Positions 3,609 to 29,371 of a stretch of DNA of 64,000 nt are shown piece by piece. The stretch's first letter is position 1. Each line of letters begins with the position of its first letter. The notes under the pieces were generated by a model. It saw only the letters and a program-made list of their open reading frames with translations, was not told where the DNA came from and did no database searches. This DNA is from an uncultured Verrucomicrobiae bacterium (GTDB lineage Bacteria; Verrucomicrobiota; Verrucomicrobiia; Limisphaerales; Palsa-1400). The stretch lies in contig CAVPOM010000010.1 in the NCBI GenBank assembly GCA_963707025.1, positions 64,001 to 128,000 of the forward strand, read 5' to 3'. The position numbers and the translations under genes are program-made.

Positions 3609-5237
3609 TCAGTTTCTTTCGGCAGATGTGATCGTTAAAAAGTCGGTGGTTCGCTGTTTCTGGCGAAAATGTTTTGCGCTGATCCTGCCGTCCGCCTGGG
3701 TTTGCCCGGTCTCGCTGACCAGATATTTTCCGTATTTGAAAACTTTAATGCCAGCAAATTCCTCTTCGTCGTCGAGATCTGTCAAAACGCCGCTAATTCT
3801 CATCACGGCCTTCAAATCAACGATTTTATCGGCGTCGCTGTCATCGGTTTCAAACTGGCTCGCTTCAAGCACTTTGGGTTTGAGTATGCCAATGGGAATA
3901 CCGCCTGTCCCGTGAGCGAAGTGCTTCCCCAACCATTTGAGCACCGGGGCTTGCTTGGCCTCCCATTTGGTGAAGGACTCGAAAATGTCTCGCGGGAATG
4001 TTTTGTTTTTGCGCCAACCAGACTCGAAATGGCTGGTTCCAGGATAAACAACGTGCAACTGTGGAAAGATGGTAATTGTCTTTCCACGACGAGCGGCGGC
4101 TTGTCCCATTTCCTTCAAAATATTCTTGGTCTGTGTGTGGTCTTCGTCTGTTTCATCAGGCAGACCGAATTGGAGGTTTATGTAGCAGCTAACATTGGAT
4201 TCCAAAAGTGCTGGAACCACTTTCCGTTTCAGGCGTTCGAGATAACGCTCTGGATTTGGCGCTTTGTTTAGATACTCCAAATGTCTGGGAACCAGCGATT
4301 CGACGCCGAGATACACCGCCTCTGCGCCCGCGCGCTCCAGCAGCGACACAAGTCCCTCACGATCCATTGACTCAACGCGGGTCTGGCAATCCCACCAGAA
4401 TTCAAGCCCGTCGCGGCGCAATTCAGCCAGAGCACCGCATAGTTCATCAGTTCGGCGAGGCGTGTGAGCAAAAAAATTATCCTCGATGGCAATCCGGGAA
4501 AAACCGAGTTCCACCAACTGGCGTATGTCTTGGCACACCCGGGCCACACTCCGCGCTCTGATCTTCTGATTTGATACCGAACAGAAGGCGCATTTGAGCG
4601 GGCAGCCACGCGCGCTCACATAGGTTACATGGCCGAACTTACCCGGAGTGCCGCTAATACTGTTTCCCTCGAAGGTCAGCGGGATCGAATCCAACTGGCT
4701 TTCATTGAGGAGGGCAGGCGGTTGATTAAAGTTAACTGAACCTTTGTGCCAGAATGCCAATCCGGGGGTAGAACAGACGCGCGGAAATCGGTGAAGAAAT
4801 TCAGTCATCGCGATTTCACCTTCACCGACCACCACGTAGTCAACTGTGTTCTGGTGGTGCGTAAGCACAATTTCAGCGTCAGCACTGGCATGAGGCCCCC
4901 CGAAAACGGTCTTGAATTCCACACCAGGAATCGAAAGCGATTTGAAAGCTGAAGCTGTAGCCAACGCCGACTGATAAGAAGCCGTTGTCGTGGTGATGCC
5001 AACCACCGTCTGGCTTGAAAATGAAATGCGACCTGAAATGTGACTTTGCCGGATCACTTCTTGCAGGCTGGATAACGGAGTTGAACTCAAGTCAAGGAGT
5101 TGCACCTCGATTTTCGGCACATTCGCCTGATTCGCCTGAATGTAATTGGCGAGGCTGATCAACCCTGTGGCAAACCCGCCCAACAATCCGAATTGCGGGG
5201 GCATCACAAGAATCAAAGTTAAATCTGCATTTTCCAT
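3609..5237 (-). CDS. Cobalamin-binding radical SAM protein
   Basis: B12-binding-type GGPHAS...VVGEGE and RGCPLKCAFC (CxxxCxxC); start chosen at ATG 5237. Confidence 0.9.
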   Translation of the reverse strand: MENADLTLILVMPPQFGLLGGFATGLISLANYIQANQANVPKIEVQLLDLSSTPLSSLQEVIRQSHISGRISFSSQTVVGITTTTASYQSALATASAFKSLSIPGVEFKTVFGGPHASADAEIVLTHHQNTVDYVVVGEGEIAMTEFLHRFPRVCSTPGLAFWHKGSVNFNQPPALLNESQLDSIPLTFEGNSISGTPGKFGHVTYVSARGCPLKCAFCSVSNQKIRARSVARVCQDIRQLVELGFSRIAIEDNFFAHTPRRTDELCGALAELRRDGLEFWWDCQTRVESMDREGLVSLLERAGAEAVYLGVESLVPRHLEYLNKAPNPERYLERLKRKVVPALLESNVSCYINLQFGLPDETDEDHTQTKNILKEMGQAAARRGKTITIFPQLHVVYPGTSHFESGWRKNKTFPRDIFESFTKWEAKQAPVLKWLGKHFAHGTGGIPIGILKPKVLEASQFETDDSDADKIVDLKAVMRISGVLTDLDDEEEFAGIKVFKYGKYLVSETGQTQADGRISAKHFRQKQRTTDFLTITSAERN

Positions 5238-5702
5238 GGGCACAATGAGCGTGCTGCTCTGATAACCCAATCGCAGGTGAAGTGCCATGCTGCCGATGCA
5301 CCACAAAAACGATGAAAACGAACAGTTTCCGATGATTTATGCCTGCCCCGATGCCTTCGTGCCGTAACGGTGCGGTTACGCCGTAATCCCTGCGTTACGA
5401 ATTTGACAGCCAAAGAGACGCCCATTCCTTGTAGATTTCTGTCTTTGTCCGACACAAAACATGCGTGACAGAGTTCTCGGATACGACACTGATTTTAGCA
5501 ACGCAAATGCTCCTAAGAACGGCGAAATGCAAGGCTTGCAGGCACCGAGCCGGCAACAACACCCTTCCAAGAAAATCAACTAGAGGTCGTTGTCCGGTCT
5601 GTGTAGACGGGCAACGTCAATTTTCCACCACTCATTGGCATCACAATTGCCATACATGATTTCGCGGTCATCAAACAGTCGAATGCAACGCAATTAGCAA
5701 TT

Positions 5703-6158: not shown

Positions 6159-6713
6159 ATGAACACGCTACCCACTTTGGAGACGGAGCGATTGGTGCTT
6201 CGCCCTTTCATGCTGCCTGATGCGCCAGAAGTGCAACGGCTGGCTGGCGACAAAGATGTGGCATCTACGACTTCACGCATTCCCCATCCCTACAAAGACG
6301 GAATGGCTGAAAAATGGATTGATTCCCATGCTGGGAATTTTGCTAGGCGCGAGGGGATCTCGCTCGCAATCACCTTGCGCACGGATGGCTCGCTGGTGGG
6401 GGCGGTTGGTTTGATAATTTCCGAGGAAAACTCACGAGCGGAGCTCGGCTATTGGATCGGCAGGCCGTTTTGGAACCACGGCTATGCCACTGAGGCCGGG
6501 CGTGCGATGGTGAAATACGGTTTTCAAGAATTGGGCTTGGAGCGAATCCATGCACAACATTTGAAGCGAAATCCAGCCTCGGGCGCAGTCCTGGCCAAAA
6601 TCGGCCTGAGCCACGAAGGATGCCTACGCCAGCACGTGAAAAAATGGGGGATGTTCGAGGACGTCGAAGTGTGGAGCGCGCTCCGTGCCGAAAATATCGG
6701 TCCGGTCGGTTGA
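6159..6713 (+). CDS. GNAT N-acetyltransferase (RimJ/RimL family)
   Basis: LETERLVLRP, AELGYWIG..FWNHGYATEA, NPASGAVLAKIG. Confidence 0.93.
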   Translation: MNTLPTLETERLVLRPFMLPDAPEVQRLAGDKDVASTTSRIPHPYKDGMAEKWIDSHAGNFARREGISLAITLRTDGSLVGAVGLIISEENSRAELGYWIGRPFWNHGYATEAGRAMVKYGFQELGLERIHAQHLKRNPASGAVLAKIGLSHEGCLRQHVKKWGMFEDVEVWSALRAENIGPVG

Positions 6714-6830: not shown

Positions 6831-8123
6831 ATGCCTCGATCACGAAAAGAATGGCAAGATGATGTTGACAGCGCGCGCGCGGAAGCAGGAGACGCGTGCG
6901 CTGAATATGCTCAGGCAAAGGGTGAGTTGGAGGCAGCTCGCGACGGGCAGGTTGCTGCTCAGAAGCAAGTAGAGGCGGCGCGGCAGGATGTCGAGTCTGC
7001 GAGAGCCTCTGTTGCGTCTGCCAGAGCATCGTTGGCATCCGCACAAGAGGAACTGCGGCGCGTTCAAGCAGATCGCGAGGCGTCATCCGAGGAAAAAGCG
7101 GCGGCACGGGAAGCCGTCGAGGCGGCGCGTGAAGAACTCAGCAACGCCGAGCGAGAACTCTCCGAAGCGCAGGAACACCTTAATCAGGCCCAGCAAAAAG
7201 TGAGCGAGGCCGAACGCAGGGTCAGCGAAGCCGAGCGCGCTTTTTCAGCAGCCAAACAACGTGTATCCGAGGCGCGTTCTCGGTTGGAGAGCGTCACATC
7301 CTCTGCCGAGGATGGTCTTTCACGAGCCGGGGCAGCTCGTGTTCCCGATGGTTCAGTAAGGTTTTCGAGCCACTTCACAGCGGCGCGCACGCATCGCGAC
7401 GAAGAAACTGATTTCTTCAGGAATTTGGTTGATGAACTCAACGGTGCGCTGGCCGAATTGAACAATGCCACCTCGGCATCCCCACGCCAAGGGCGCTCCA
7501 GCAGTTCTTGGTCTGGCTCGTCCGGCGCACTTTGGGGTGGTGGCTCTGGCGGGGGACTGCCGGACTTGCCTCCTCGGTTTGGCGGGGGCGGGTTTGGATT
7601 GCCGGGGATTTCGGGAGTTGACTTGTTGGGTTGGCCTGATCCCCCGTCTCGGTTCGCTCCTCGCGGCCCTTCCATGCTCGCGACATCACCGCAGAGTTTT
7701 TCTCCGGCTTGGGCACGCCGGGAAGGCAATGAGTTGTCGCTTGGATTCTCCACGGTTGCTCCACCCGGCGCACTTCCATTCTTGGGAACGGGGCCAGTGC
7801 CCACGAGTTCATACTTGCGTCTTGGCCTCGGAACAGCCGGCTGGACCACACCTCTGGGTTTTGGAACGACCCCGTCCTCCTACGCTCTTTCTTTGGGCAG
7901 TCCGACGTTAGGTTTCGGCAAGCGTGGCTACGATATTCTTCCGCAAATTTCGCTCACGCCCTCCAGAGGAGGGCTGGGATTGGCCACAGGCGGTTCGCCG
8001 AGTTCGATGACCGGCGGTATTCAAAGCTTCGATTTGGGCCGTGGCCTCGGCTGGGGAAACGCTTGTGACAATATTGGAGGAGGCTTTGGCGGATTTGGGG
8101 GCGGAATGGGACTGGGTTCGTAG
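6831..8123 (+). CDS. Long coiled-coil protein with Gly/Pro/Ser-rich C-terminal half
   Basis: Ala/Glu/Arg heptads over about 200 aa, then a Gly-rich tail; start ATG 6831 or TTG 6810. Confidence 0.8.
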   Translation: MPRSRKEWQDDVDSARAEAGDACAEYAQAKGELEAARDGQVAAQKQVEAARQDVESARASVASARASLASAQEELRRVQADREASSEEKAAAREAVEAAREELSNAERELSEAQEHLNQAQQKVSEAERRVSEAERAFSAAKQRVSEARSRLESVTSSAEDGLSRAGAARVPDGSVRFSSHFTAARTHRDEETDFFRNLVDELNGALAELNNATSASPRQGRSSSSWSGSSGALWGGGSGGGLPDLPPRFGGGGFGLPGISGVDLLGWPDPPSRFAPRGPSMLATSPQSFSPAWARREGNELSLGFSTVAPPGALPFLGTGPVPTSSYLRLGLGTAGWTTPLGFGTTPSSYALSLGSPTLGFGKRGYDILPQISLTPSRGGLGLATGGSPSSMTGGIQSFDLGRGLGWGNACDNIGGGFGGFGGGMGLGS

Positions 8124-8146: not shown

Positions 8147-8934
8147 ATGAGCAACAAAGCAAAACCGGAACTGCCGCAGGCCGTGCAGCAGTTCATTGAG
8201 GATTTGGACGGGGCATTGGGCGACTCCTGGTGGGAATCGTTCTCTTTGGATCGCTCGCAAGGGGCGCAGGAAAGGCAGACAGCGACATTGATCTGGCTGT
8301 GATCGTGACCGATATGGATGCCGAACGCAGCCGACAGGAGGTGTTCCGTGTCTTCGGTGCGAGTGGCGCTTCGCCGGATGCGGTGGCTCTGAGTGTGGAA
8401 AGCTACATGCGGCTGAAGGAATTCTTGCGCGTCGGAGATCCATTCGCTTGGGTGGTCTGCTCCGAAGGGTTTATTCTCAAGGACAGGTCCGAATTGCTTG
8501 GACGACTTCAGCAGCAGTGCCGTGCAGCAACGGGAGACCGGAAGGTCGCGCCCACCGTGGGCTATTTGGAGGGCAAGAGCCGCATGCACTACGCGCAAGC
8601 GATGCAGTCATTGTGGCAATGCCTTTCCAACCTTCAGCTTTGCACAATGGCGGCTGCGCAGGCCGTGGCCGTTCAACATTCCAAGCGGGACGTGCCTGAG
8701 AAAGACCTGGCCGGCCTGGGTGATTGGGGCCGCCTCAAAGAGACATTGCAACAAACCTCGGCTACCCGCCGGGAGATTGAAGCCGTCGAGCGTCTGATTC
8801 TCGCTCATAAGCAGGCGCGAACAAATGCGGCGGAATATGCGGGAAGAGACCTTGTGGAAGCTTTGCGAACTGTTGGTGAACTCTGGGCGAGGCTTTTGCC
8901 TGGCTTCTCCAAATCAACGGGAGACAAAAAATGA
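8147..8934 (+). CDS. Nucleotidyltransferase (MNT/Pol-beta fold) with helical, possibly HEPN-like, C-terminal domain; frameshift near 8228
   Basis: LFGSLARG..SDIDLAV motif; upstream ATG 8147 (MSNKAKPELPQAVQQFIEDL) joins by a 1-nt indel; RLILAH near the C-terminus. Confidence 0.8.
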
Positions 8935-9275
8935 GCGCAACGAACAAATACGGCGAACTGGAGGGCAGTGCATGCCCCAAATGCGGCGATCCAATCAAAC
9001 CGCAATGGGTGGCGTGTCCCGCTTGTGGCGCGACACTCAACAATGGCTCGGGCACTGAAACAAAAAAGACTTCATCACAACCGGATCGGTTTACATGCCC
9101 GGGTTGCGGTGAGAGAGCGACGGCCAATGAGGACGCAAAGTTTTGCGAGACGTGCGCGGCATTCGTCCACGAAGACTGCATGGTTCGGGCACCTGAGCGG
9201 CTAAAAGATGGCAAGACGTATTGCGAATACTATTGTCCGGTGTGCAATAAAATTCTGAATTGTGATGTGAAATGA
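8931..9275 (+). CDS. NKYGE-leader zinc ribbon + C4HC3 RING/PHD-like finger protein
   Basis: CPKC..CPAC, then CPGC..CETCxxxxHxxC..CPVC; ATGA overlap with the upstream gene. Confidence 0.85.
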   Translation: MSATNKYGELEGSACPKCGDPIKPQWVACPACGATLNNGSGTETKKTSSQPDRFTCPGCGERATANEDAKFCETCAAFVHEDCMVRAPERLKDGKTYCEYYCPVCNKILNCDVK

Positions 9276-9304
9276 CACGAGCGGGTCAACTGGAACGGTA
9301 AATC

Positions 9305-9664
9305 ATGAGTGCGACGAACAAATACGGTGAACTGGAAGGCGGGAAATGCCCGGAATGTGGCGATCCAATTAAACCGCAGTGGGTGGCGTGCCCAGAATGT
9401 GGAGCCTCTTTGGTAAAAGGCAGACGCGTCGCAGAAGTTTCGACACCAGCCGAGACACCGAAATCTCTTTTCTCTCAAACTTGTCCTGGTTGTGGAGAGA
9501 AAGCGACGGCAGCAGGTCAAACAGGTCCGTTTGGCTCATATTCACTTAACAAAGGATACCTCTGTAAGAACTGCCAAGCGTTTGTGCATTTTGGGTGTTT
9601 GGTGGACAACGCGCTTTGTCCGGTCTGTGGTTTGGTTGTTGGAAATCTGCTGGTTCCGTATTGA
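9305..9664 (+). CDS. NKYGE-leader zinc ribbon + C4HC3 RING/PHD-like finger protein
   Basis: CPEC..CPEC, then CPGC..CKNCxxxxHxxC..CPVC. Confidence 0.85.
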   Translation: MSATNKYGELEGGKCPECGDPIKPQWVACPECGASLVKGRRVAEVSTPAETPKSLFSQTCPGCGEKATAAGQTGPFGSYSLNKGYLCKNCQAFVHFGCLVDNALCPVCGLVVGNLLVPY

Positions 9665-9666
9665 AG

Positions 9667-10239
9667 ATGAAAGCGAATTACTCAACCACGGGCGATTCCG
9701 CGCTGCTTATGCGACTCGACGACGCTCTCTCGCTGTTTGATGAACCAGTGTGGCGCGAGTTAAAACAGGCTGTGGAGACACCCGAGCAGCCCAAGCCGGA
9801 GACCAGACCGGTGTCCAAGGAATGGTTCCGAGCGAATCCACAGCTTCTCGCCAAAGAGAAGGCGGTGCTCGAAAAACTCCTTTCTGCCTTACCGGAATTC
9901 CCGGGCCTGTTTTATCAGAAGCAGAATCCCACGCTGCTCGGTGCCGCAGGCCTGCTACAGGTCACTGGCGCTACCAAGGTAAAGGTGGAGTTGGTCTTTC
10001 CGGCGGATTATCCGCAGTCTGCGCCGCGAGTGTTTTTCTTCGGCCCGGCCATCAAGAAAGCGCCGCGTCTGTTGCGCGCGGATGGCTCCATCCCCGTTCC
10101 GTTCGGTGCCGATCAGCAGTGGAATCCGGGTTGCAACAGCGGGACGCTTTTGAACTGGGCGTTGGAATGGTTTGAGAGCAACATGGAAGTGAAGCCACCG
10201 CATTCTCAGGAGCGTGGCAATGGGAGAACAAGACGATGA
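9667..10239 (+). CDS. E2/UBC-fold protein lacking the catalytic Cys (UEV-like)
   Basis: VELVFPADYPQSAPRVFF...DGSIPV...QWNP matches the UBC pattern, with Pro at the catalytic position. Confidence 0.7.
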   Translation: MKANYSTTGDSALLMRLDDALSLFDEPVWRELKQAVETPEQPKPETRPVSKEWFRANPQLLAKEKAVLEKLLSALPEFPGLFYQKQNPTLLGAAGLLQVTGATKVKVELVFPADYPQSAPRVFFFGPAIKKAPRLLRADGSIPVPFGADQQWNPGCNSGTLLNWALEWFESNMEVKPPHSQERGNGRTRR

Positions 10240-11315
10240 ATGATTCGTGGACCTTGCCCACTGTCTTCATACTTCGCCAGGCGATGGATGTAATCCGCCG
10301 CGAAGCTCTCGGTTCTGATGTGGAGACGGGCGGAATCCTGATTGGTGCAAGGTCGGGCGATGGAGCAGTGCTTGTCACCCACGCGACCCCTCCCGGCCCG
10401 CAGGCGGTTCACCATGCCTACTATTTCCAGCGCGACGTGGCATATCAGCAGACTCTGCTGAAAAAGCTGCACGAGCAATACGGCGTGCAATATCTGGGTG
10501 AGTGGCACAAGCACCCTCGAAATCTGCCTGTGCCTAGTGGCGGTGATGCCAAAGGCGTGCATGATCTGCTTCATGATCGCGATTACGGTGTGGACGGCAT
10601 CCTCTTTCCCATCATCATTTGTGAGTCGGACTTGGGGTTTCAACTGCACCCTTTCTACGTAACCCGGCTTGATCCCGAGATGCATTTTCATCCCATGAAA
10701 TGGCACGAGATTAACTTGGCGATGGAGCCGGATCGCGCATTCACCCAATCCTTTTTTCAAAGGACCAAGCCTGTCAGTCAGAGGAAGGAAACAACGGAGG
10801 AGGAGCTTTCCGCATCTGCTGGATCACAGCCTGCGCAAGAAGGAGTTTGGAGGAAGCTCGCGAGTTGGATACCACTGCCGTTCTTTTCGGAAGACGGACA
10901 GAAGACACCTGCAAGCGGAGTTTTGAAGGACAAGTCTTCGCAAGACGCGCCGTCTGAAAAGTCACTCCGCTGGTATGAGGCTCAAAACGGACGCTCATTG
11001 CTTGCCAAGGAACAGAGTCTTCTCCGCTCCTTTGGTTTGAAGGCAGAGCCGTTCCTGATAGGCGAAGGCAACTTGTGTTTTTCTTTCCCCCGAACCAGCG
11101 GACGGGAAATTGTGGTCGTGTGTTCCAAGCAACATCCGGCTCGTGCTCCCCAAGTCCTAATTCGAAGCTCGCCGTCTGCGAAGCATCAAACCATACAAGA
11201 TGTGGAATGGACACCGCAAAGCATGCTTGCGGACGTCATCGTGCCCCTGTTAGGGCCGGAAATTCAGTCGCCGGCAATTGTGTTTGCCGATGACTCGGTA
11301 AAAGCGCAAACGTAG
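10236..11315 (+). CDS. JAB/MPN (JAMM) metallo-isopeptidase fused to a degenerate E2-fold domain
   Basis: ETGGILIG...GEWHKHP...PSGGD (E-HxH-S-D); C-terminal WY..LLAKE...HPARAPQV...WTP. Confidence 0.9.
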   Translation: MNDSWTLPTVFILRQAMDVIRREALGSDVETGGILIGARSGDGAVLVTHATPPGPQAVHHAYYFQRDVAYQQTLLKKLHEQYGVQYLGEWHKHPRNLPVPSGGDAKGVHDLLHDRDYGVDGILFPIIICESDLGFQLHPFYVTRLDPEMHFHPMKWHEINLAMEPDRAFTQSFFQRTKPVSQRKETTEEELSASAGSQPAQEGVWRKLASWIPLPFFSEDGQKTPASGVLKDKSSQDAPSEKSLRWYEAQNGRSLLAKEQSLLRSFGLKAEPFLIGEGNLCFSFPRTSGREIVVVCSKQHPARAPQVLIRSSPSAKHQTIQDVEWTPQSMLADVIVPLLGPEIQSPAIVFADDSVKAQT

Positions 11316-11328
11316 AAAGATAAGACTT

Positions 11329-11526
11329 ATGCCAAGAGACAACACCATTGATAACCTGGAGGAAATCGCCCGCCAACTCGATGAACGCAAGCCGGTATTC
11401 GTCAGCGTGGACGGACAGATTCATGACGCAGAAAAACTGAGTCAGGAGGACGCGCATGAGCGTGGGCCTGTGACCCAGTTGAAACCAACAACGTGGTATC
11501 GCACATGGAAAGGAGAAGGATTGTGA
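11329..11526 (+). CDS. Small 65-aa protein, candidate modifier peptide
   Basis: Lies between JAB and E2; its stop overlaps the E2 GTG (GTGA); weak ThiS-like resemblance. Confidence 0.7.
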   Translation: MPRDNTIDNLEEIARQLDERKPVFVSVDGQIHDAEKLSQEDAHERGPVTQLKPTTWYRTWKGEGL

Positions 11527-11984
11527 ATCTCGCGCGCTTGAAGCCAGTCACTTGGTATGCCTGGCACGATAAGATGCCGACGCGGTTGCGGCAGGAAACG
11601 GAGGCAATGCACAGTCGTTTTCCGGATTTCAAGCTGACCCGTGGCAACGATGGCAAGCTCGGTTGGGTGGGAAAGTTGAAATCAAATCGCGGCAATAGCT
11701 ACCGCGTCCTGATTGATTATCCGGAGAACTTTCCACATGAAGAACCAAGGGCGTTCATCATTGAGCCGCGTTTTGTCTGTCAGCACATGTGGAAGGATGG
11801 GCATCTCTGCCTCATGTATCCCGACGGCGGCACTTGGCAGACAAACACGACGTGCGCAACTATGGTTGCCATCGTGGCGGCGTGGATTTTCTCGTTTGAG
11901 AGTCATCAGGCGAATTGTCGAGGCAGCAGCGGCAAACCATGCATGGACCCGCATTGCAAACATTGGCCTGGGAAGAAACTCTAA
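11523..11984 (+). CDS. Prokaryotic E2 (ubiquitin-conjugating-like) enzyme with catalytic Cys
   Basis: YRVLIDYPENFPHEEP...HMWKDGHLCL...W; AAGGAG RBS before GTG 11523. Confidence 0.85.
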   Translation: MNLARLKPVTWYAWHDKMPTRLRQETEAMHSRFPDFKLTRGNDGKLGWVGKLKSNRGNSYRVLIDYPENFPHEEPRAFIIEPRFVCQHMWKDGHLCLMYPDGGTWQTNTTCATMVAIVAAWIFSFESHQANCRGSSGKPCMDPHCKHWPGKKL

Positions 11985-11997
11985 AGACATCCCTACC

Positions 11998-13005
11998 ATG
12001 ACAGCCAACCCGCCCAATAGCACATCGTCGCGAGCGCAATCTCAGTATCCCAAGCCTAGCTTGCAATCGCGCCCGATTCTTGAGCGGTTGTCTAATTCCG
12101 CCGCCCGGACGCTCCGCCCGGATTCGCTTTTGCTTGAGGAACTTTTGACATCACTCAAGAAAGATCAGTTTGTTCTGCAAATGTTGCGGGAGGAGTTGCG
12201 CCGGTATCGGGATGGAAAAGTCTCTCCGGAATTGGTGTCCCGTGCGGCCGTCCGGGTCGAGCAACTGGAGAACGAGTGTGATCTGCTGGGCGCCAATGCC
12301 GCGCTGATGTGTGGGGCAACCGCCAAGGCCACGTTGTTGCTCCGGGGATTGATTCAGAAAGATTCCAGCAATTTGGCAGAATCCAGCCGGCCTTTACTGT
12401 TCAAATTATTGATTTCCATCGCTTGGGTCGTCGAGGATGCTTCCGTAGCCGAGACTTTCCTTCAGCGGGCTGCGACCGAGGATCAGCAGGGAGACTATGC
12501 TCAGTATCTGGCAGGGGTGAATCGGTTGTTACAAGCGCGCGCTGAATTGCGTCAGAAGAAACCCGATGCTGCGGTTAGACTTTGCCAAGCGATGGGCCGG
12601 GAGACTCGACCTGACGATCCACTCCGAATTCTGGCCTTGGAACTGCAGGCGGATGCCTTTCGTCAGTTGGGAGATGAGAAGCGCGAGCAGGACGTTCTGG
12701 AAGATTGGGAAGGTCTTTTGAAGCGACTGCCGAACGGCCCTTGCGACCTGGCTGTTGAAGCGGAGACGACCACCACCGCGCCTGGCATTTCAGGTGGACC
12801 AAGGTCACACGAGATTCTGGAACACTTCAGCCGGCTGGCCTTCCACTTCGAGCGCAATTCAGACACGCGGAATTACGCGAAGGGAATTCTCACAAAGTTT
12901 CTCAACACCGCCCAACATGAGTGGATAGATCCAAATCAACCCGTGGCGGGCACAATTCGTGAACGAATGGCCCGTCTTGAATCCCCACCAAGAAACCTCC
13001 ACTGA
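11998..13005 (+). CDS. Helical (TPR-like) hypothetical protein
   Basis: ATG 11998 just after the E2 stop; all-helical pattern. Confidence 0.7.
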   Translation: MTANPPNSTSSRAQSQYPKPSLQSRPILERLSNSAARTLRPDSLLLEELLTSLKKDQFVLQMLREELRRYRDGKVSPELVSRAAVRVEQLENECDLLGANAALMCGATAKATLLLRGLIQKDSSNLAESSRPLLFKLLISIAWVVEDASVAETFLQRAATEDQQGDYAQYLAGVNRLLQARAELRQKKPDAAVRLCQAMGRETRPDDPLRILALELQADAFRQLGDEKREQDVLEDWEGLLKRLPNGPCDLAVEAETTTTAPGISGGPRSHEILEHFSRLAFHFERNSDTRNYAKGILTKFLNTAQHEWIDPNQPVAGTIRERMARLESPPRNLH

Positions 13006-13035
13006 CGACCGCAAATCCAATTCCGCCCTACCGGC

Positions 13036-13626
13036 ATGGAGATCATTGAACCCAACCGTGCTTTCGGAAGGGTTTCAGACAAAGCTATTGAAGAATTGCT
13101 CAATAAGCTGACGACCATGCCGGGCGCAGCTTACTGCGCGGTCGTGGTCGGCAAGGTAGAAGTCAAGGAACGTCAGTTTCGCGTGGACCGGAAACAAGGA
13201 GACCCGGTAGATCAGTTGCTGGCGGCACTCGGTGAACTCCATGCGGAATCTTCCAGCGGCACGCCTGCCATTCAGCCTGAAAAAACTGGCGTTATCTCGA
13301 AGGGACAACCCATGCAGTGGATCGCGCTGAACCATGAGGAACGCGCACCCGACATTCGCGCTCTTTCCTTCGGCCTCCGGGTGGATCAGGTGGGTGACGA
13401 AATGGATTTGTCGCTGCATCTCCTATTCACCTATACGCCACCGTTGGGGGCCGATGATCGTGACGAACTGGCCGGGCTGCTGCGCAAGAAGCCGGAGGAA
13501 CTTGGCGGCTACCGCGCCTTGGAGGCGGGAGTTGTGGACCTGATCAAGCGGGCTGCTCGACGGGTCGGACAAAGAGCCGGTGGTTCAGTCGGTCGCCAAC
13601 AAAGGAAAGGTCCGGTGCGCTTGTGA
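13036..13626 (+). CDS. Hypothetical protein (196 aa)
   Basis: Operonic ORF with a GTGA overlap into the ATPase. Confidence 0.75.
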   Translation: MEIIEPNRAFGRVSDKAIEELLNKLTTMPGAAYCAVVVGKVEVKERQFRVDRKQGDPVDQLLAALGELHAESSSGTPAIQPEKTGVISKGQPMQWIALNHEERAPDIRALSFGLRVDQVGDEMDLSLHLLFTYTPPLGADDRDELAGLLRKKPEELGGYRALEAGVVDLIKRAARRVGQRAGGSVGRQQRKGPVRL

Positions 13627-16312
13627 AGTCAGATTTCCTCAAGATTTCCTTTCTCCCGGATCTCGCCATGCCGAAATACGGCGCGCGGTATGGTGCATCA
13701 GCGGCAAAGTGTGCCGGCGGCGTCCTTGCGAACATTCTGGGGCTGCTCGAACCCGAAACCGGAGATTGGCTGCTACTCCGCTACTTTTACCAACCAGATT
13801 CAAAGTTGCCCCAAGACCGGCTTCGGTTATTCGTCCGTGTTCATGCCGGGGACAAAGTTGCGGGTAAGTTCCAATTCCCCGGCGAGCATCTTCTGAAGGA
13901 ATTCTATTCCTGGACGCCTGTTGCGCCAGACCAAATCGGTTTGGGTTTCCAGGATGAGTCGGCACCGTTGTTCGTCGTGGATCGGAATGAGGAGTTGCTT
14001 CACGACCCCGAAAAAGACCTTCTGCATTACGCTCCCGTCGCCTTCCTGGAAGATCAGCCTACTCTGGCTGACGGGTTGAATATCGAACGCTTTGTTCCAT
14101 TCGCTTACTGTTCCGTGCCTCGTTGATATCAGCGCCCGGCCCCTGGAGTTAACTGATGGGGTTGGTCAGGCGCTGCTTTCGTTGCTGCGCGATCTGGACC
14201 GCCATGCTTCCGCGTTTGATCCCGAGCGGCGGGACGCAGGCTCCATCGAGGACCTTTCGCGCCAACACGATTTGCTCGCGGCCAGGCATAAGGATTTCTA
14301 TCAGCAGTATTTTGACACGCTGTATTCTGGTCGGATTTGTGAATTCGGCATCCGCGTGATGTCCGCAGACAAACGGGAAGGAGCATTGGTCGCGCGTTCT
14401 TTGGCCGAAGCCCTTGGTGCTGGCGGCAAGGCGCGAGTCCGGGAAAGACCTTCCGGCAAGACCCCGCTTCGCATGGCTGTTCGTGCTGGGGAACACTTTG
14501 TAGAGCAATCCAAGTTGGCCAACGGCGCGGTTTGTTTCTCTGACCGGCTGGCCGGTGTCCCCAAAAAGCTGCAAACAGCAGTTGAGGAGCAGTTCCTTCG
14601 CGCCACGGAGTTGTCGCACCTGTGTTTTTTGGCGGACATGCAAACGGCGGGTCGCATGCTCACATTGCCGACTTCGGATGGGCTTTACCTGCGAACGATA
14701 CGCATCGAAAGCGAGATGCGCGGTGTGCGACCGGGCGGCAAAGAAAAGCAGGGGCTAATCGAGATCGGCACGGAAGCAGAGCGACCGTCCAATCTCGCCG
14801 TTGGACTGGACCAAGCCCAGAAGCATCTTTTCGTCGCCGGCGTGACCGGCAGCGGCAAGACCACGACCATTCTGAATATCCTCCAGCAACTTTGGGAGAA
14901 ACACCAAGTTCCCTTTCTGGTGTTGGAGCCTGCCAAGAGCGAATACCGAATCCTTGCGGACGGCAAAGGAAAGCTGGCAAACGATTTGAGGATCTATTCA
15001 CCTGGCAACGAACGGCTCTCGCCATTCCGCTTCAACCCGCTGGAAGTTCCCTCCGGTGTGACAGTCGAGGAACACATTTCCGCGCTGGAGACCTGTTTCG
15101 CCGGGGCCATCCCAATGTCAGGCGGTCCGCTGCCAAGCCTGATCAGCGAGGCAATCGTGAGATGTTACGAAGAGGCGGGTTTCAGTCTGGGCGACGAGGA
15201 GAGCATAGGCCGACCGTGGCCCACCATGAAGACGCTGGTTTCCTCCTGCGAGGAAGATCATGGAAAATCGCGGTTACGTCGGCGAGGTGAAGGCCAACCT
15301 TCAGACCGCCATTGATGTTCGGCTCAACTCGCTCTGCCAACGCAGTGTCGGGCGCATGTTCTCCTTCAATCATTCGTTCCCGTCGCTCGACGAACTGATG
15401 CGCTGGCCGACCATTTTGGAGATGGACGCTTTGAATCTCGATCAGCAAAACCTCCTGGTGCTGTTCCTACTGAACTCCATCCGGGAACGGCTTACCCGGC
15501 AGGGTCCGGCCAAGGGCTTGAAACATGTGATCGTGCTGGAGGAGGCGCATAATCTCATCGGGGTGCAGAGCGCCAAGGGACAGGTGTTTGAGGATTTCGC
15601 CGACCCGCGTGGCCATGCCGCGCGTTTTCTCGTGCGCATGCTGGCGGAGATTCGCGCTTTTGGTGAGGGAATCATGGTGGTGGACCAATCTCCTGCCGCC
15701 ATTGCGCCCGAAGTGCTCAAGAACACAGCGGTCAAAATCGTGCATCGGACTGTTTCCGAAGACGACCGGGATGCGCTCGCGGCAGCCATGCTGATGGACA
15801 AGTATGCACATGAGGAATTAGCCCGGTTGGAAGTGGGCGAAGCGTTTGCCTACAACGAACGACTCTACCGTCCCGTGCGCGTGCGCTCGCCATACGTTAT
15901 CGAAGGGATGACCAGACCAGATGACCTGTCTCTACAGAAGCATGTGGCCTCGGCTGATTGGTATCAAGCGTCGCAGGAGCGCAGGCTCGATAATTTGCAG
16001 CGCAAGCTGGAACAGCTTCGCAATGCACTGCGGAAGGGCTTGGTTGCATCTCTCCGTGAAGCTAAGCATCCCGAGTTTGGCAAGGATGTCCGGACTTGGC
16101 ACGACTCGTTGCTCGTGCTGGTTGAACAATTTCGTCTCAAGTCAAAACAGATTATCGCTGACGCCATGTTGGATCGGGCGTTGAGTGACAGCGCGACGAA
16201 GATTGGGAATTCCCATCTGGAGCGGATTCGAGAACTGGAGTTGGAGGCAGCAAAACAAATACCCCGGAGGAAATATGCCGCGAAAAAGCAAAAGCGAATT
16301 GCAGGAAAATAA
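13623..16312 (+). CDS. HerA/FtsK-superfamily (DUF87-type) ATPase with long N-terminal region; frameshifts near 14092 and 15256
   Basis: HLFVAGVTGSGKT, LVLEPAKSEY, FNPLE, HVIVLEEAH, VVDQSP across three ORFs joined by single-base indels. Confidence 0.88.
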
Positions 16313-16787
16313 GCAGGAACGCGAAGAGCGAACCGACGCTGAAGAAGAAGTCTCTGCCGAAATCAAAGACGATGCCGATTCTGCCCAATCAGATTGGTCG
16401 GGTCAGGACGATCCGGTGTTGAGCGATACGGCTGATGCGCTGAACGCTGCGGCCGAGGCGCTAAAGTCGGACATCCAAGGGCAGCACGGAGAACAGGCAG
16501 AGAAAGTGGACGAGTCCATCGAGACCCAGCGGAAAGAGGTCAGCGAACCTGCTCGTGAAGACGAATCCATTGAACGCTCGGCGGGTGATGAACTGGATGC
16601 CGCCTCTGGTCGAAACAAACGTTTTGGGAAGAATCTCTCGGATGCTGGCGAACAGCGCCGTGATGCCGAGCAGTTTTTGGCGGAGCTTGCCGAAACTGAT
16701 GAGGCCGATCAGGAACAAAGCAAGGAAACACTCGACGCACATCGCCGGGCCGTCGAGCAGGCGATTCAGAACATCCGGGAGTTTTAG
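16275..16787 (+). CDS. Acidic coiled-coil protein with a WSG motif at residues 41-43
   Basis: GGAGG RBS before ATG 16275; all-helical and E/D/A-rich. Confidence 0.8.
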   Translation: MPRKSKSELQENKQEREERTDAEEEVSAEIKDDADSAQSDWSGQDDPVLSDTADALNAAAEALKSDIQGQHGEQAEKVDESIETQRKEVSEPAREDESIERSAGDELDAASGRNKRFGKNLSDAGEQRRDAEQFLAELAETDEADQEQSKETLDAHRRAVEQAIQNIREF

Positions 16788-16805
16788 AAGGTTCGGAGAA
16801 TTCCC

Positions 16806-17762
16806 ATGAGCAACCTGAACAAATACGGCGAGATCGAGGATGGTGGATGCCCTCACTGCGGTAATCCGATCAAGCCTGATTGGGTGGCTTGTCCAGAATG
16901 TGGCGAGCTTCTGGAGTCACCCAAGCCAGAACCATCTGAGGTGCGAGAACCCGAAAAAAGGGGCGTTCAAACGGTTTCTCCCCAGATTAACCCCCGCCCA
17001 ACACTGTCCGAGGATTTGCGTTGCCGCGTCCTTGCTGATTACCACGAGCTTTCCGACCTGAAGCGCTTTCGTCAGCGCTTCTCATCCATTTCGGGGGAGA
17101 GTCGAGTTGGTGAATGGCAGCGGGCTGCGAAGGTTGGGATGCCAGAAGCTCAATATCTCCTCGCCTGCTGTTATTTCTTGGGAAAGGGTGTTGCCCAAAA
17201 TGACGAGGAGACTGTTCGATGGGTCCGAAAGGCGGCGGAAAGAGGCATTCATAACGCGCAGTTTTTCTTGGCAGTATGTTATAGCAATGGTTTCGGCGGC
17301 TTGCCCAAGGATCAAGCGCAGGCAGACCGGTGGTCAGAGCGCTACCCTATATCCGATTTAAGTGAAGCAGAGTTGGACCGGTGGATAGAGAATGCGAAGC
17401 TGGTGGAAGACTTGGTCTTCAAGAAACAAAAGGGATATTGTTTCATTACAACGGCTGCGGTTCAGTCGCTTGGCCTTAACAACGACTGTCGTGAATTGAA
17501 TCTTCTGCGGGCCTTCCGCGACTCCTACATGCGGGCGACGCCTGCACGGTGCCAGCAGGTCACACTGTATTATTCCCTTGCTCCGCGCATTGTGTGCCAA
17601 ATCGAGTCGAGAGCTGATGCTGCATCAATATGGCGACACCTGTGGTTTGGCCACATCCAGCCTGCTGTCGCAGCCATTGAGAGGGGTGCCCTCCAAAAAG
17701 CTCACAAGGGCTATGCGGCAATGATACGCGAAGCGTCGCGACGATTTCTTCCACCAGCATGA
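16806..17762 (+). CDS. NKYGE-leader zinc ribbon + Sel1 repeats + CFI-box-CTERM domain protein
   Basis: AQYLLACCYFLGKGVAQN..W.RKAAERG (Sel1); GYCFITTA...LRAFRD...YY..AP. Confidence 0.88.
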   Translation: MSNLNKYGEIEDGGCPHCGNPIKPDWVACPECGELLESPKPEPSEVREPEKRGVQTVSPQINPRPTLSEDLRCRVLADYHELSDLKRFRQRFSSISGESRVGEWQRAAKVGMPEAQYLLACCYFLGKGVAQNDEETVRWVRKAAERGIHNAQFFLAVCYSNGFGGLPKDQAQADRWSERYPISDLSEAELDRWIENAKLVEDLVFKKQKGYCFITTAAVQSLGLNNDCRELNLLRAFRDSYMRATPARCQQVTLYYSLAPRIVCQIESRADAASIWRHLWFGHIQPAVAAIERGALQKAHKGYAAMIREASRRFLPPA

Positions 17763-18253
17763 GCGCACTCAACAAATATGGTGAATTGGAGGAAGGCAAC
17801 TGCCCTAAATGCGGCAAGCCGATCAAACCAGACTGGAAGGCTTGTCCAAGTTGCGGCCACAGCTTCGACCGCAAAACAGTAACCGAATCGCACAATCAAA
17901 ACGCGGCTCAAGCGCGGACGCTGCTGAAACAACTCCAAACTGCCGTCAATGAATATTCTGCCCTTGAGGCTCGACGTGGGTTGGCCGAAGAAGCTGTCAA
18001 TCAAATTTACGGTTTGAAAGGTGAAGAATGGCTGGATGAACTGGGGAGGATCGAGCAAAAATTCGATGCATCTTCGAAGCGGATACTGGAGCTGATCGAA
18101 AGGTGCAAATGCCTTTGTCGCGATTTGGAAATTAATCTTGGAATGAGCGTTCGAGAGAGTGCGGAGTTGGAGGGAAAATGTGAATTGCTAAAGTGGAGCA
18201 AACAAGGGGTTCAATCACGGCTTGACTATTACAGAGCAAAGATTCTCAACTAA
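17759..18253 (+). CDS. NKYGE-leader zinc ribbon + helical domain protein
   Basis: MSALNKYGELEEGNCPKC..CPSC; ATGA overlap. Confidence 0.85.
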   Translation: MSALNKYGELEEGNCPKCGKPIKPDWKACPSCGHSFDRKTVTESHNQNAAQARTLLKQLQTAVNEYSALEARRGLAEEAVNQIYGLKGEEWLDELGRIEQKFDASSKRILELIERCKCLCRDLEINLGMSVRESAELEGKCELLKWSKQGVQSRLDYYRAKILN

Positions 18254-18255
18254 AA

Positions 18256-18675
18256 ATGTCAGACCTGAACAAATATGGCGAGCTTGATGAGAGCGCATGC
18301 CCCAAGTGCGGTCATGTTGTTCAACCAGATTGGAAGACCTGTCCTTTCTGCTCAACCAAGCTCGAATCAACCAAGTGCTCCAAGTGCGGACGCCCGCTGA
18401 AGGTAGAATGGAAAACCTGCCCATGGTGTGGTGACAAAGACCCCGGCTTAGGTTCCATTAAAGAAACATGCGTCCGTTGTAGCCAGAGGGCCGATTTGGG
18501 GCCGGTTTATCAGTGTCCAGACTGCGCGAGCGTTGTGCATACCTACTGCGCGACCGTCGGCAAGCGAGTGAGCCAGAGTGGAAGCTACAGTATCCTATCC
18601 CAGTGCGAGGTTCATTGCCCAAGGTGCGGTAAGCTGCTCGGAACACGTGAGGACTGTGTCGAACCGCGCAAATAA
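18256..18675 (+). CDS. NKYGE-leader double zinc ribbon + C4HC3 RING/PHD-like finger protein
   Basis: Two CxxC..W..CPxC ribbons, then CVRC..CPDCxxxxHxxC..CPRC. Confidence 0.85.
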   Translation: MSDLNKYGELDESACPKCGHVVQPDWKTCPFCSTKLESTKCSKCGRPLKVEWKTCPWCGDKDPGLGSIKETCVRCSQRADLGPVYQCPDCASVVHTYCATVGKRVSQSGSYSILSQCEVHCPRCGKLLGTREDCVEPRK

Positions 18676-18685
18676 TGGAACAATT

Positions 18686-19663
18686 ATGAAACAGCGCAAA
18701 ACCAACGATCAAACCCGTTCACGGACAAAGCGCGCCAAACCCGCGTCCGTGAATGATGTCTTTTCCCGTATTCGAGGGATTTTTGAAACAAAGATGCTTT
18801 CTGGAAAAAGGGTGGCCATTATCGGCCTTGGCACTGGCGGGTCGGTATGCGCCGACCAGTTGGCGCGATGCGCTGTGGATCACTTTCGATTGGTGGATTT
18901 TGACCGGTTGGAAATCCACAATATCGCCCGTCATACCTGCGGCTGTAGTGACATTGGCCGGTTCAAGACCGAGGCGGTAGCTGACCGCATCCGGAATGTG
19001 AACCAGCAGGCCGAAGTCGAGACTTTCGAGGAGGATGTGGTCAAGAAACCGGACTTACTCGAAAAAGTCATCAGCGGCAGCAGCCTGGTGCTGGCTTGCA
19101 CGGACAATAATCGTTCCCGTTACGCAATCAACGAAACCTGCCTCCGTCTCGATGTGCCGGCGGTCTATGCCGGAGCGTATGAACGGGCGTTCGGAGGATT
19201 CGTGATGCGGGTCGTTCCAGGGAAAACTCCCTGTTACGACTGCGTGTATGGCGCTCTCCAGCAATCCTTGGGTGCGGCTCCCCACAAGCCTGGGCCTATT
19301 GCCTATTCAGAGTTGGAGGATGCCTCAGAGTTCAAGGCGGAGCCGGGTCTGTGCGTTGATGTCCACATGATCGCGCTCATCCAATCCAAGATGGCCTTGC
19401 TGACGCTGCTTCGCGGGATGGACAGCAAGCTGGAGGATTTCCCAGCCGATTTCCTGCTTTGGGGCAATCGAAAGGAATGGATTTTCCCGGAGCCGCTTTA
19501 CTGCAAATTCGCCAAGACCTCATTCCGGGCAGATTGCCCGACTTGCCAGGCTGCAAAGTTGCGCAACGAAGATCTTGCTAAAGCCAAAGAGGAAGCCCGG
19601 CGGATCATTGAGGGAGCCGCATACGACCCTGCCCTAATGCAGAGTGTCCGGCAGACAAAATGA
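18686..19663 (+). CDS. ThiF/MoeB/E1-family adenylyltransferase
   Basis: IIGLGTGGS, DFDRLEIHNIARH, CTDN, Zn-binding pairs CYDC and CPTC. Confidence 0.93.
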   Translation: MKQRKTNDQTRSRTKRAKPASVNDVFSRIRGIFETKMLSGKRVAIIGLGTGGSVCADQLARCAVDHFRLVDFDRLEIHNIARHTCGCSDIGRFKTEAVADRIRNVNQQAEVETFEEDVVKKPDLLEKVISGSSLVLACTDNNRSRYAINETCLRLDVPAVYAGAYERAFGGFVMRVVPGKTPCYDCVYGALQQSLGAAPHKPGPIAYSELEDASEFKAEPGLCVDVHMIALIQSKMALLTLLRGMDSKLEDFPADFLLWGNRKEWIFPEPLYCKFAKTSFRADCPTCQAAKLRNEDLAKAKEEARRIIEGAAYDPALMQSVRQTK

Positions 19664-22078: not shown

Positions 22079-23531
22079 TTAGAACCATCGGCGCATCCTT
22101 GAAAACCATTTGGCTGTAGTTCCATCCGATTCCAACGGCGGCAACGTCACCCGCCGAAACCCTCGTTCACAGTGGACGAGCACGCACTCGTGGTCGCGGA
22201 GATTGCGGAGCTTGTGCGGTTTGATTTTGTGTTCCTCGGTTTCGGTGTAATTCACGTTGCGCTTTCCGGCACTGTAACCCCATGAGCGTTTTACCACCCG
22301 CTTTTTGCCGATGAAATCGGCGGCTTGAACGGCATCGGCTTCGTCGGCGGAGCGGAAAATCATCCGGTTGCGAAGATTCAAGGTCAGGACTTTTGATTTG
22401 TCGTTGCCGAGCGGCGGAATAAGCGAAGTCGTGCTTTGCGCGGCGGCGACGATGGTGGCGCCCGCCTCGCGGATCACGTCCACGCAATTGTAATCGCTCG
22501 TGCCGTCTTCGCTGGCCGTCATAAACCGCTGCGCCTCGTCGGCCCAGAGGATGAGCAAGTTGTCTTTCGCGCGGTCGGCCTTGGATTTGTCGAAACGGCG
22601 CAAGGCATGATTGTAATAAAGCAGCTTCAGGAATGTGTTCACATAACGCCGTTCGGTCTGAAACTTTTGCGGCATGGTCGTGAGGATGATTTTGCCCTGG
22701 TCAATCGCCGAAAAATCAAACGTGCTTTCGCCGGTGCAAAACACTTCGGCAACTTCCGGCGTCAGGAAGTATTGCAGATAATTGCCGATGGTTTCGCGGA
22801 CGCCGCCAAATTGCTCGGCAGGTTGGGTGAGAAAACGGTCGAGAAAGTGTGCGTAAACGGCGGCCCGGCGCGGCGTTTCGAGGAGATTTTCAAGATTTTC
22901 CATTTCTTCTTCGAGCAGGTCGCCGATTGGACAACAATTCATACGCGTCGAGCAAAGTCACGGGGCGGTTCAATTCAAAGAGCATTTCGAGCGCGTGCGC
23001 GATGTGGGTCTGCGCCTGGCTTTTGAAAAAGCCTTTGTCCCCGCCCTGGCCAAGACTCGTGGCGGTGTCCACGATAAATTTGGCGTAGGTGGAGAATGGA
23101 ATACTGCGGTCGCCGGTCAGGTTGTAGCGATTCGGCGGCGTCCACTGCGCATCGGTGTCGTTTGCGCGGATTTGCAGATGAATCAAATCGTGTTCGCGGC
23201 CGTAGTGACGCGCCATCGCCGCGAGCGTTTCCCAATAAACGCCTTTTTCGTCAACGCACAACCCGCCCCATGTCGGTTCGTTTTGAAAAACTTGATGCGC
23301 CAGTTGGTTGATGCCGGAACTGGTTTTGCCAGAGCCGGTGTCGCCGGTGATGAGCCAGCCGCGACAAAATTGATTGCGTTTCCACTTCAGACCGCCGAGC
23401 CGCGCGACGCAGCCTTTGCGATTGCGAGGAACGAACAAAAGCCAAACTGCGATGAGCGCCAGAAGAATTCCGCCAGCCGCCAAGAAGTATTGCGGATGCC
23501 GCAACGCGAGCATGAGGTCTGGCGGCAGCAT
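22079..23531 (-). CDS. Type IV coupling protein (VirD4/TraD-like); frameshift near 22925
   Basis: N-terminal TM, ITGDTGSGKT, LWADEAQ, AAQS; adjacent to a MobF relaxase. Confidence 0.85.
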
Positions 23532-23559
23532 TATCGGGTCGAACGGAATGAGGTGAGTT

Positions 23560-23936
23560 TCATCGCCACGCCCTCCCGATGAGATAGCCGGCCAGCAACG
23601 CGGCGAGCGCGGCAAAGATCGCGGCGGCGCGGGTGATTCTCGACGGCACGGTAGCCGGTCGGCTGGCTTCGCAGCAGCTTCCAGCAAGGCCGATGACTGT
23701 TGTTGAAATGTCTGCGCCGCGCCGAGCGAGCTTGCGCGATGTCCGCGCGAAATTGCTCAAAGGACGGGAATTTCCCGGCGGCGAAGTTCATCCCAATGCT
23801 GCTGGTGGATTCGGAACAATTCGACAAGCAATATCACCGCGTCGTCTTCTCGCAGCCGATGTTTATCGCGCCACTCGGCAACGGCCTTGGTGAATTCCTC
23901 GTCGAAGTCCGGCGGCTGTGTGCTGGGCTTGGACAT
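23560..23936 (-). CDS. Small mobilisation-associated protein with C-terminal TM (frameshifted)
   Basis: MSKPSTQPPDFDEEF...; C-terminal AAIFAALAALLAGYLIG in another frame. Confidence 0.55.
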
Positions 23937-24631
23937 CACTTTGAGGGCAGAAGCAGGTTGGCGGCAGATTCAATTTCAGCGTAAAAGTTTCCGCTGCCAG
24001 GTTTGGAGTCGTTGCCGGTCGAGCAGGCTGAACGCGGGATGTTTCGCCGCTGCTGTGATGGTCAGATTCTCGGCGTTAAGCGCCTCGACCAGCCAGTCCT
24101 GCATCCGGGTCATGGTGATTTCCCGTCCGCCGAGCTTGTCTTTGAGCAGCGCGCGGACTTCGCACGATTCAAAGATCGTGAAACTGTCGCTGTGCGCGGC
24201 GTTGCGGACGACGACGTAACTGCACTGGTTTCCGAACTCGTCGGTCAGCCGTTGGATTTGTTCCACGCTGTCCGACTCGTGATTCACCGGCATGACGAGC
24301 GTGAGCTTTGCGCCGAGCGCGGACAGCACGGCGAACAGGTCAATTTCGGCGAAGAAATCAATAAACAGGTCGGTGGACGCGGCGCGGCAATCCATGACGA
24401 CCAGATTTGCCTTTTCCAACGCGGCGAAAATGGCGTCAAGCGTCGCGCCGTTTGGACAAGTCGAGGAAGCGCGTGTCGGGATGAAACCGTTTCAACGTCG
24501 AGTTCTCGTTGTCGCTGTCAATCGCGACATGGGCGATGCCCTTGTCTTTGAGGATACTGGACGAAGTTGACGGCGAAGAAACTTTTGCCAACGCCGCCTT
24601 TGCCATTAAGGATGAGAATCAGTCTTTTCAT
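23936..24631 (-). CDS. ParA/MinD (StbB-like) ATPase (frameshifted)
   Basis: Manual translation MKRLILILNGKGGVGKSFF (deviant Walker A)...IDSDNEN; continues into ORF 23976-24419. Confidence 0.8.
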
Positions 24632-25440: not shown

Positions 25441-25481
25441 TCAAAAACCTGCCTCCCGGCAGGAGTAAGGCGTGCCCTGTC

Positions 25482-25736: not shown

Positions 25737-25746
25737 AATCAGATGT

Positions 25747-26025: not shown

Positions 26026-26106
26026 GGAGGCAGTTCATCATAATCCGAGGGAGCAATGGTGTGTCAGGCACACAATGACCGCGCACAGTCCGTGTAATGT
26101 CCGGGT

Positions 26107-29242: not shown

Positions 29243-29371
29243 ATCGTTGAGGTAAATTGAAAATCTAAGGAGGAAGCCCCGTTTCCTCAGCAACCAAATG
29301 AGGCGATTTGTCTGGCCGGTTTCCGAGTGCCGGGCATCTCACAAATGACTATGAGCATGTAGCGGGTAAAT

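Follow-up and report, generated by a model that had tools for sequence, protein, structure and literature searches.

We analysed a stretch of 64,000 nucleotides (nt), referred to below as the window, on contig CAVPOM010000010.1 of an uncultured Verrucomicrobiae bacterium, in which an operon containing genes for an E1, an E2 and a JAB peptidase also encodes five paralogous proteins that we call cassettes. An earlier note on this DNA had identified three of them by a C4HC3 zinc-finger pattern and proposed these RING/PHD-like fingers as candidate E3 ligases. The three fingers are indeed present, but the note had overlooked that the three proteins share their heads, a leader and a separate zinc ribbon, with two further open reading frames (ORFs), 16806 and 17759. 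The cassettes, named by their start positions, are arranged as follows.

8931..9275 (+), cassette 1: leader, zinc ribbon and C4HC3 finger (finger pattern at 9096-9245 (+), amino acids (aa) 56-105 of ORF 8931)
9305..9664 (+), cassette 2: leader, zinc ribbon and C4HC3 finger (9482-9628 (+), aa 60-108 of ORF 9305)
16806..17762 (+), cassette 3: leader, zinc ribbon, Sel1 repeats and CFI-box-CTERM domain
17759..18253 (+), cassette 4: leader, zinc ribbon and a helical tail not assigned to any named family
18256..18675 (+), cassette 5: leader, two zinc ribbons and C4HC3 finger (18469-18627 (+), aa 72-124 of ORF 18256)
8926..9031 (+), reference copy of the 106-nt head repeat; other copies at 9300-9405, 16801-16906, 17754-17859 and 18251-18356

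The common head consists of the leader MSxxNKYGE(L/I)E followed by a ribbon of the form C-x2-C-x10-C-x2-C, and its five DNA copies are 62-81% identical to one another; across 33 codons, any two copies in the window differ by 6-15 synonymous changes. Searching the whole genome with the leader pattern returned five matches, all five in this operon. Quantification of 52 distinct heads revealed the K in 50, the G in 49 and the E in 52, counts that are partly circular because the heads were anchored by the pattern; the Lys is replaced by Arg in locus L014 and by Asp in protein P0067. The leader also occurs without the ribbon, in L011, L014, L016, L017 and five finger proteins. Cassette 2 was recovered from another sample as well, with 12 differences in 318 nt. 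As a lead only, the modelled head (window 8931-9044) lies nearest to RanBP2/NZF fingers (Z up to 3.3), a group with several ubiquitin-binding members, and the head ribbon might likewise bind the candidate modifier described below.

The finger pattern reads C-x2-C-x(12/23/11)-C-x2-C-x4-H-x2-C-x(18/6/22)-C-x2-C in ORFs 8931, 9305 and 18256, respectively, at the places where the earlier note had reported it, and none of the three short ORFs is interrupted. Scanning the 6.96 Mb genome in six frames produced four matches; since three of the four sit in the window, the cluster is not due to chance. The fourth, on contig C4, lies in a small ORF whose C-terminus carries a hydrophobic segment (G000:C4:365705-366067) and represents a different finger family, because the family profile gives no match to it; searched against the genome, the domain profile found exactly the three window fingers (E 1e-21 to 9e-18). 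The loops had been described as unrelated, which is true of the loop between ligands 6 and 7 but not of the others, as the start of loop 1 is common to 8931 and 9305 (81% over 32 nt) and all three fingers contain an [FV]VH core.

The genes that surround the cassettes include those of a protein-conjugation system.

9667..10239 (+), inactive E2-like protein in which Pro replaces the catalytic Cys (family E2 profile, E 2e-11)
10236..11315 (+), JAB/JAMM peptidase fused to a truncated E2-like domain (E...HxH-x7-S-x2-D intact; tail hhalign 78%)
11329..11526 (+), 65-aa candidate modifier with a helix, hairpins and KPxxW[YF]
11523..11984 (+), E2 with catalytic Cys96 and a C-terminal H/C/C/C cluster
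13623..16312 (+), HerA/FtsK-family ATPase (three frames here; one gene of 888-895 aa in relatives)
16275..16787 (+), conserved acidic 170-aa protein, no family found
18686..19663 (+), ThiF-family E1 with no crossover-loop Cys and an invariant Tyr207; TPR genes follow

In the E2 encoded by 11523, Cys96 is invariant in 15 of 15 sequences and lines up with the catalytic Cys in E2s of solved structure, in line with the earlier claim, here predicted by alignment, that one active E2 lies near the fingers. RING-binding E2s have a Ser-Pro-Ala loop, which this E2 lacks; it has W-x-T-N-T-T. In the E1, Tyr207 is invariant in six of six sequences and there is no invariant Cys between the zinc pairs. The 11329 protein is likely the modifier, and its sequence is unlike that of ubiquitin. 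Models of ubiquitin-like (Ubl) families gave no match in the operon ORFs scanned or in 11 homologs of the small protein, sequence searches revealed no named relatives of it, and an Atlas search returned nothing for it (for the finger, leads of 0.89-0.90 only). In other phyla (L010-L014, L016-L018), a homolog of the small protein forms the N-terminus of a fused E2; the Trp of its KPxxW[YF] is invariant across the 11 homologs and the Lys nearly so, and in two homologs (L009 and L019) the protein stops exactly at KPxxWF. A model of the small protein-E2 fusion of L017 predicted an ordered helix and short strands ahead of the E2 (pLDDT 71-93 over residues 1-50). The stand-alone E2 has a KPxxWY of its own at its N-terminus (window 11523-11560), a second copy of the modifier end that is absent in P0008 and P0009. 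When the leader was compared with the hairpin of the small protein, the hairpin was the best window in 11 of 13 homologs, and in 7 of the 13 no more than 50 of 1000 shuffles scored as high. We dropped the idea that the leader completes a beta-grasp in the manner of split ubiquitin, as it found no sequence support. Divergent from the JAB gene of L017 is a small ORF (L017:7043-7258 (-)) with a modifier-like helix and the full leader motif and no terminal KPxxW[YF], possibly a decoy or regulator.

Next, we examined related loci. Alignment of the E2 led to 12 metagenome loci and 4 genome loci, with L012, L013 and L017 read as one sequence. Close relatives keep the core of E1, E2, inactive E2, JAB and HerA, and in L004-L006, where this core is 81-95% identical in DNA and HerA is conserved with two helical proteins, the alignments end just after the leader and restart at the inactive E2 (9657-9734). 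The cassette tails differ from locus to locus; those of L004-L006 comprise other C4HC3 fingers (four genes), ankyrin-like repeats, membrane segments, a CFI-box and helical domains. A contig of another run joins 8936 to 9311, so that cassette 1 is missing and cassette 2 is kept. Because the finger can be exchanged for ankyrin, Sel1, CFI-box and membrane tails, it is more probably the leader than the finger that provides the conserved connection to the machinery. Terriglobia and Bryobacteraceae loci and L014 have, in this order, a JAB, a double truncated-E2-like protein, the small protein-E2 fusion, an E1 and a membrane protein that starts with the leader and lacks the ribbon; in L016 and L017 the double protein is fused to a C8 finger of the same spacing. 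A Bathyarchaeota locus (L018) has the fusion, JAB and E1 only. In a Chloroflexi locus (L019:629-9298), the modifier and E2 lie beside WXG100-like and YukD-like genes, both under the cut-off. The leader pattern has 20 matches in four other genomes, two of them at gene starts, both right after E1; a third has a Met four codons upstream, yet lies 395 codons inside a long frame.

The system is rare. A search of 400 further genomes from the phylum found no member of the E1 family, and a search of 400 further genomes from the order, with 15 candidates scored in each, found no finger; among 40 relatives, the E2 gave weak matches only, in two. Viral contigs yielded no E1 and six weak ribbon-type matches, and plasmids yielded no E2.

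To place the finger, we searched 1.84 billion representatives with a domain-only profile, which returned 66 proteins, 21 of them with the leader by pattern. The full set of 85 proteins examined, after five eukaryote-like matches had been dropped, gave 61 proteins with 62 domains. Nearly all domains have C-P-G-C, loop 1 is 11-12 residues long in 50, ligand 5 is His in 57 and Cys in 5, [FY][VI] lies ahead of ligand 5 in 61 and an aromatic residue two before the His in 61. C-P is found at ligand 7 in 60 (the pattern mis-cut two rows), with C-P-[VI]-C at ligands 7-8 in most, and loop 2 spans 6-30 residues while the core is fixed; the fingers are diversified, as the earlier note had held, and tied to this operon. 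Thirty of the 61 proteins carry the leader, five of these without the ribbon, a count that is inflated because some proteins were found with leader-containing queries. One of them, P0022, combines leader, finger and a further C8 domain of similar spacing that scores above the Pfam RING cut-off. Among five matches of 427-2000 aa there was no long fusion of the finger to an E2 or E1, which is weak evidence.

The class of the finger was judged by profiles, models and key residues. Pfam PHD (PF00628) scores 23.9 bits against the finger domain (cut-off 24) over the whole model (1-47) and matches five of seven members, while Prok-RING_1 (PF14446) scores 21.5 bits, below its cut-off of 29.1, with a weak match in four of seven; whole ORF 8931 reaches 30.3 bits for Prok-RING_1 only by adding the head ribbon. 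Sequence matches in the PDB are mostly PHDs (E 0.002 or worse). An AlphaFold2 model of 8931 built from 22 sequences (mean pLDDT 81.6; 83-96 over the finger) contains no helix, and loop 2 is predicted to form a beta-hairpin where a RING has its helix. A structural search with residues about 50-112 aligned the model with RING and PHD chains (KAP1, APIP6, NSE1, VIN3) at tied, low Z scores of 2.2-2.9, and Foldseek ranked PHDs first with no match at E 0.001. RINGs that bind E2s are marked by an Ile site, a helix Trp, a linchpin Arg/Lys, a Pro-hydrophobic pair at ligands 7-8 and a central helix. Three of four such residue marks failed in the finger (Ile site: Gly in 59/62; Trp: 0/62; linchpin Arg/Lys: 14/62), and the Pro-hydrophobic pair is present. 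PHD fingers have a Trp two residues before ligand 7, a position at which 10 of the 62 domains have Trp and 23 an aromatic residue. RINGv/RING-CH fingers are spaced C-x-C-x7-H; the finger shares their C4HC3 ligand order but is spaced C-x2-C-x4-H/C throughout, as in PHD and Prok-RING_1.

By the model and the structural alignments to RING and PHD chains, the finger likely adopts a cross-brace fold of the PHD/RING class and tandem ribbons are unlikely; the tied scores fit RING and PHD folds alike, and overall the finger looks more PHD-like than like a classic RING ligase. Classic RING-E3 action is unlikely by sequence because the RING E2-binding residues are missing and a predicted hairpin takes the place of the helix. 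Of what the earlier note had suggested, the PHD/RING type of finger, a binuclear class, was supported as likely, by the full-model PHD match just below its cut-off and the alignment to RING and PHD structures over ~50 residues, and the likeness to prokaryotic RINGs in part, the ligand spacing being that of Prok-RING_1 but the domain score lying under the cut-off. A RING-variant assignment does not fit the spacing, the role of classic RING E3s is at odds with the missing residues and helix and with the exchange of fingers for unrelated tails, and simple tandem ribbons, one part of the outcome that the note had named as its refutation, are not what the model predicts.

From the motifs, gene order, catalytic residues and tail swapping described above, we infer a scheme in which the JAB trims the 11329 protein, or its E2 fusion, after KPxxW[YF]; the E1 would then adenylate the trimmed modifier end and may hold it on the invariant Tyr, and Cys96 of the E2 would take over the modifier and conjugate it to a target. 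The leader, akin to a hairpin of the small protein, would dock each adaptor on an assembly of E2, inactive E2 and modifier, and the hypervariable tail (finger loop, ankyrin, Sel1 or membrane sensor) would select the target or signal, probably from an invading element. A role in defence is suggested by the island location (see below), the patchy spread, the turnover of tails and the roles of CBASS and Bil. Our preferred reading, tentative and standing at slightly less than an even chance, is that the fingers are variable target-binding modules on interchangeable adaptors, recruited to the E1-E2-JAB system by the shared leader and not by a RING surface. The broader proposal is more doubtful: that the cassettes form a modular E3 layer. 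In it, recombining adaptors, each joining an invariant leader for docking to a hypervariable tail for recognition (in some, a PHD-like finger), would direct a modifier other than ubiquitin, with Trp-Tyr/Phe at its end, to selected targets by way of a Tyr-E1 and a Cys-E2; this would be an F-box-like logic reached independently in prokaryotes. F-box and SOCS-box receptors also place a small constant module on many variable proteins, and the likeness to the cassettes is by logic only.

Several observations weigh against recruitment by the leader. Its likeness to the hairpin is modest: the score of the window's own 11329 copy was reached by 425 of 1000 shuffles, and one of six controls (E1) also scored in the shuffle test (9 of 300). 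Among the finger proteins, 31 of 61 have no leader, some being fused to TIR or kinase and others lying behind helical domains. The leader-pattern search found no leader gene in the archaeal (L018) or Chloroflexi (L019) genomes, both of which have the E2, so the leader is not universal. The double E2-like protein of L014 has no finger, membrane tails with outside domains suit sensors better than substrate receptors, fold scoring gave low values (Z never above 3.3, nothing from Foldseek at E 0.001), and the candidate modifier ends in an aromatic residue where Bil, Bub and E2-CBASS have a C-terminal Gly, as far as the available parts of the sources show.

If the cassette proteins were instead substrates, the leader Lys (or the N-terminus) would accept the modifier and thereby switch on sensor or effector tails, with the fingers as sensors. 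The Lys stands at a fixed distance from the start in the 50 of 52 heads that have it, the membrane, TIR and kinase partners look like signalling modules, and the Bil E2 has been proposed to find its targets without an E3 (PMC10557695, in the part available). We regard this as unlikely given the Arg and Asp found at the Lys position and the Gly and Glu that are conserved as well as the Lys, which fits a structured docking hairpin. Less likely still is the proposal of the earlier note that each finger binds the 11523 E2 directly and activates transfer. C4HC3 is a reported prokaryotic RING arrangement (PMC11354881, in the part available), the Prok-RING_1 spacing and the C-P-[VI]-C motif are in keeping with it, the structural matches include the NSE1, KAP1 and APIP6 RINGs, and C8 relatives are fused to E2-like domains or score as RING (P0022); these points are countered by the lost Ile, Trp and linchpin sites, the predicted absence of the helix, the mostly PHD matches in the PDB, the W-x-T-N-T-T of the E2 in place of Ser-Pro-Ala, and the replacement of fingers by unrelated tails. 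It is improbable that the leader marks proteins for export or sorting by the HerA/FtsK ATPase, with the cassettes as polymorphic cargo and the conjugation genes as a side module. The conservation of HerA and its two helical companions in L004-L006 and the sub-threshold WXG100-like and YukD-like genes near L019 would suit this, but in acidobacterial loci leader genes stand next to E1 and no HerA lies within up to 10 kb on either side, 16275 has no WXG100 match, and the zinc-ribbon and membrane tails suggest a cytoplasmic leader. Finally, it is highly improbable that the motifs are simple tandem ribbons or debris unlinked to the E2: although the best whole-protein Pfam matches are DZR/zinc ribbon and fold scores are low, the DZR matches come largely from the head, the isolated domain best matches PHD across the whole model, ligand 5 is always His or Cys, and the predicted model aligns end to end with cross-brace fingers.

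The remaining operon genes are listed here.

6831..8123 (+), conserved coiled-coil protein with a Gly/Ser-rich tail
8147..8934 (+), Pol-beta-type nucleotidyltransferase whose frame is broken near 8226
11998..13626 (+), conserved protein without a family name (split into two ORFs here, a single gene in relatives)

The nucleotidyltransferase is short and matches Pol-beta/MntA-type models only, with no match to a cyclase model. Upstream of the operon lie a B12-binding radical SAM gene (3609-5306 (-)) and a GNAT acetyltransferase gene (6159-6713 (+)), neither with a match in the related loci that were tested for GNAT. Downstream, at 22079-32134, are genes for a coupling protein (split), a relaxase-helicase, HEAT-repeat proteins and RadC, which are remnants or parts of a conjugative element adjoining the operon; since coupling-protein, relaxase-helicase and RadC genes follow it, the operon is probably carried on a conjugative island. 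Several core genes contain frame breaks, which correspond to single-base differences from relatives with intact frames. We rejected a pseudogene reading, as rpoB and rpoC of the same assembly (G000:C6) are also fragmented (10 and 12 matches across frames), and the breaks are most likely assembly errors. The assembly thus carries pervasive single-base errors, which bears on other findings from this genome.

By sequence, the operon is predicted to be a new form of prokaryotic ubiquitination-like system. In the parts available to us, Bil is described as having no E3 and RING-containing operons as uncharacterised (PMC10557695), and E1E2/JAB-CBASS is likewise described as having no E3 (PMC12948482). 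With five natural adaptor candidates that share one tag, three of them with PHD-like fingers, the operon is a compact setting for testing how specificity is conferred on a bacterial E2, and it offers a candidate modifier without a terminal Gly. Neither the pairing of E1-Tyr with E2-Cys nor this operon type is described in the available portions of PMC7159879, PMC11354881, PMC1779556, PMC10557695, PMC12948482, PMC11601596 and PMC11601603; the Burroughs 2009, 2011 and 2012 surveys or their supplements may already list the family. The leader motif had no occurrence in the literature matched by a two-term query, which is no proof of absence from print.

Tri-ligase Ubl operons such as FtsH ternary systems (PMC7159879) have fingers of the Prok-RING_1 (PF14446) type with the same C4HC3 spacing and, as here, an E1, E2, JAB and finger in one operon, a modifier-E2 fusion and the constant-plus-variable layout of conflict systems; the present operon differs in having several fingers as swappable cassettes, and no beta-grasp Ubl, MoxR, vWA or FtsH was found in it. 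The PHD finger (PF00628) shares the C4-x4-H-x2-C spacing and the aromatic residue two before the His, matches over its full length at a score just below the cut-off, and provides the best PDB sequence and Foldseek rows, whereas the fingers described here are bacterial, have a long variable hairpin and no histone context, and rarely have the Trp before ligand 7. The Bub type I (6E) pathway (PMC11601596) has the same invariant E1 crossover Tyr without Cys, a JAB and, in many loci, a modifier-E2 fusion; because the Bub JAB cuts the Ubl-E2 fusion and its E1 is of the Tyr type, the Tyr-type E1 and JAB cleavage proposed here have a precedent. Unlike in Bub, whose E2 uses Ser, the E2 here keeps its Cys, no BubE or beta-grasp Ubl was found, and the candidate modifier has no terminal Gly; such cassettes are not described for Bub in that text. 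In E2-CBASS, or type II CBASS (PMC12948482), the E2s are those with which the E2 here groups (PADLOC, PF26395, PDB 8hsb), the E2-binding tail of CdnG, a helix plus a small sheet, has a layout reminiscent of the 11329 protein, and a nucleotidyltransferase lies nearby here too; in contrast to type II CBASS, that nucleotidyltransferase is a short Pol-beta protein without a cyclase match, the E1 is separate and no CBASS effector was found. Effector-associated domains (PMC7159879) are mostly helical domains and the leader is 11 residues long, so that the likeness, which does not come from sequence comparison, is one of arrangement: in both, a small constant module is carried by many variable proteins and may be present on a core component as well.

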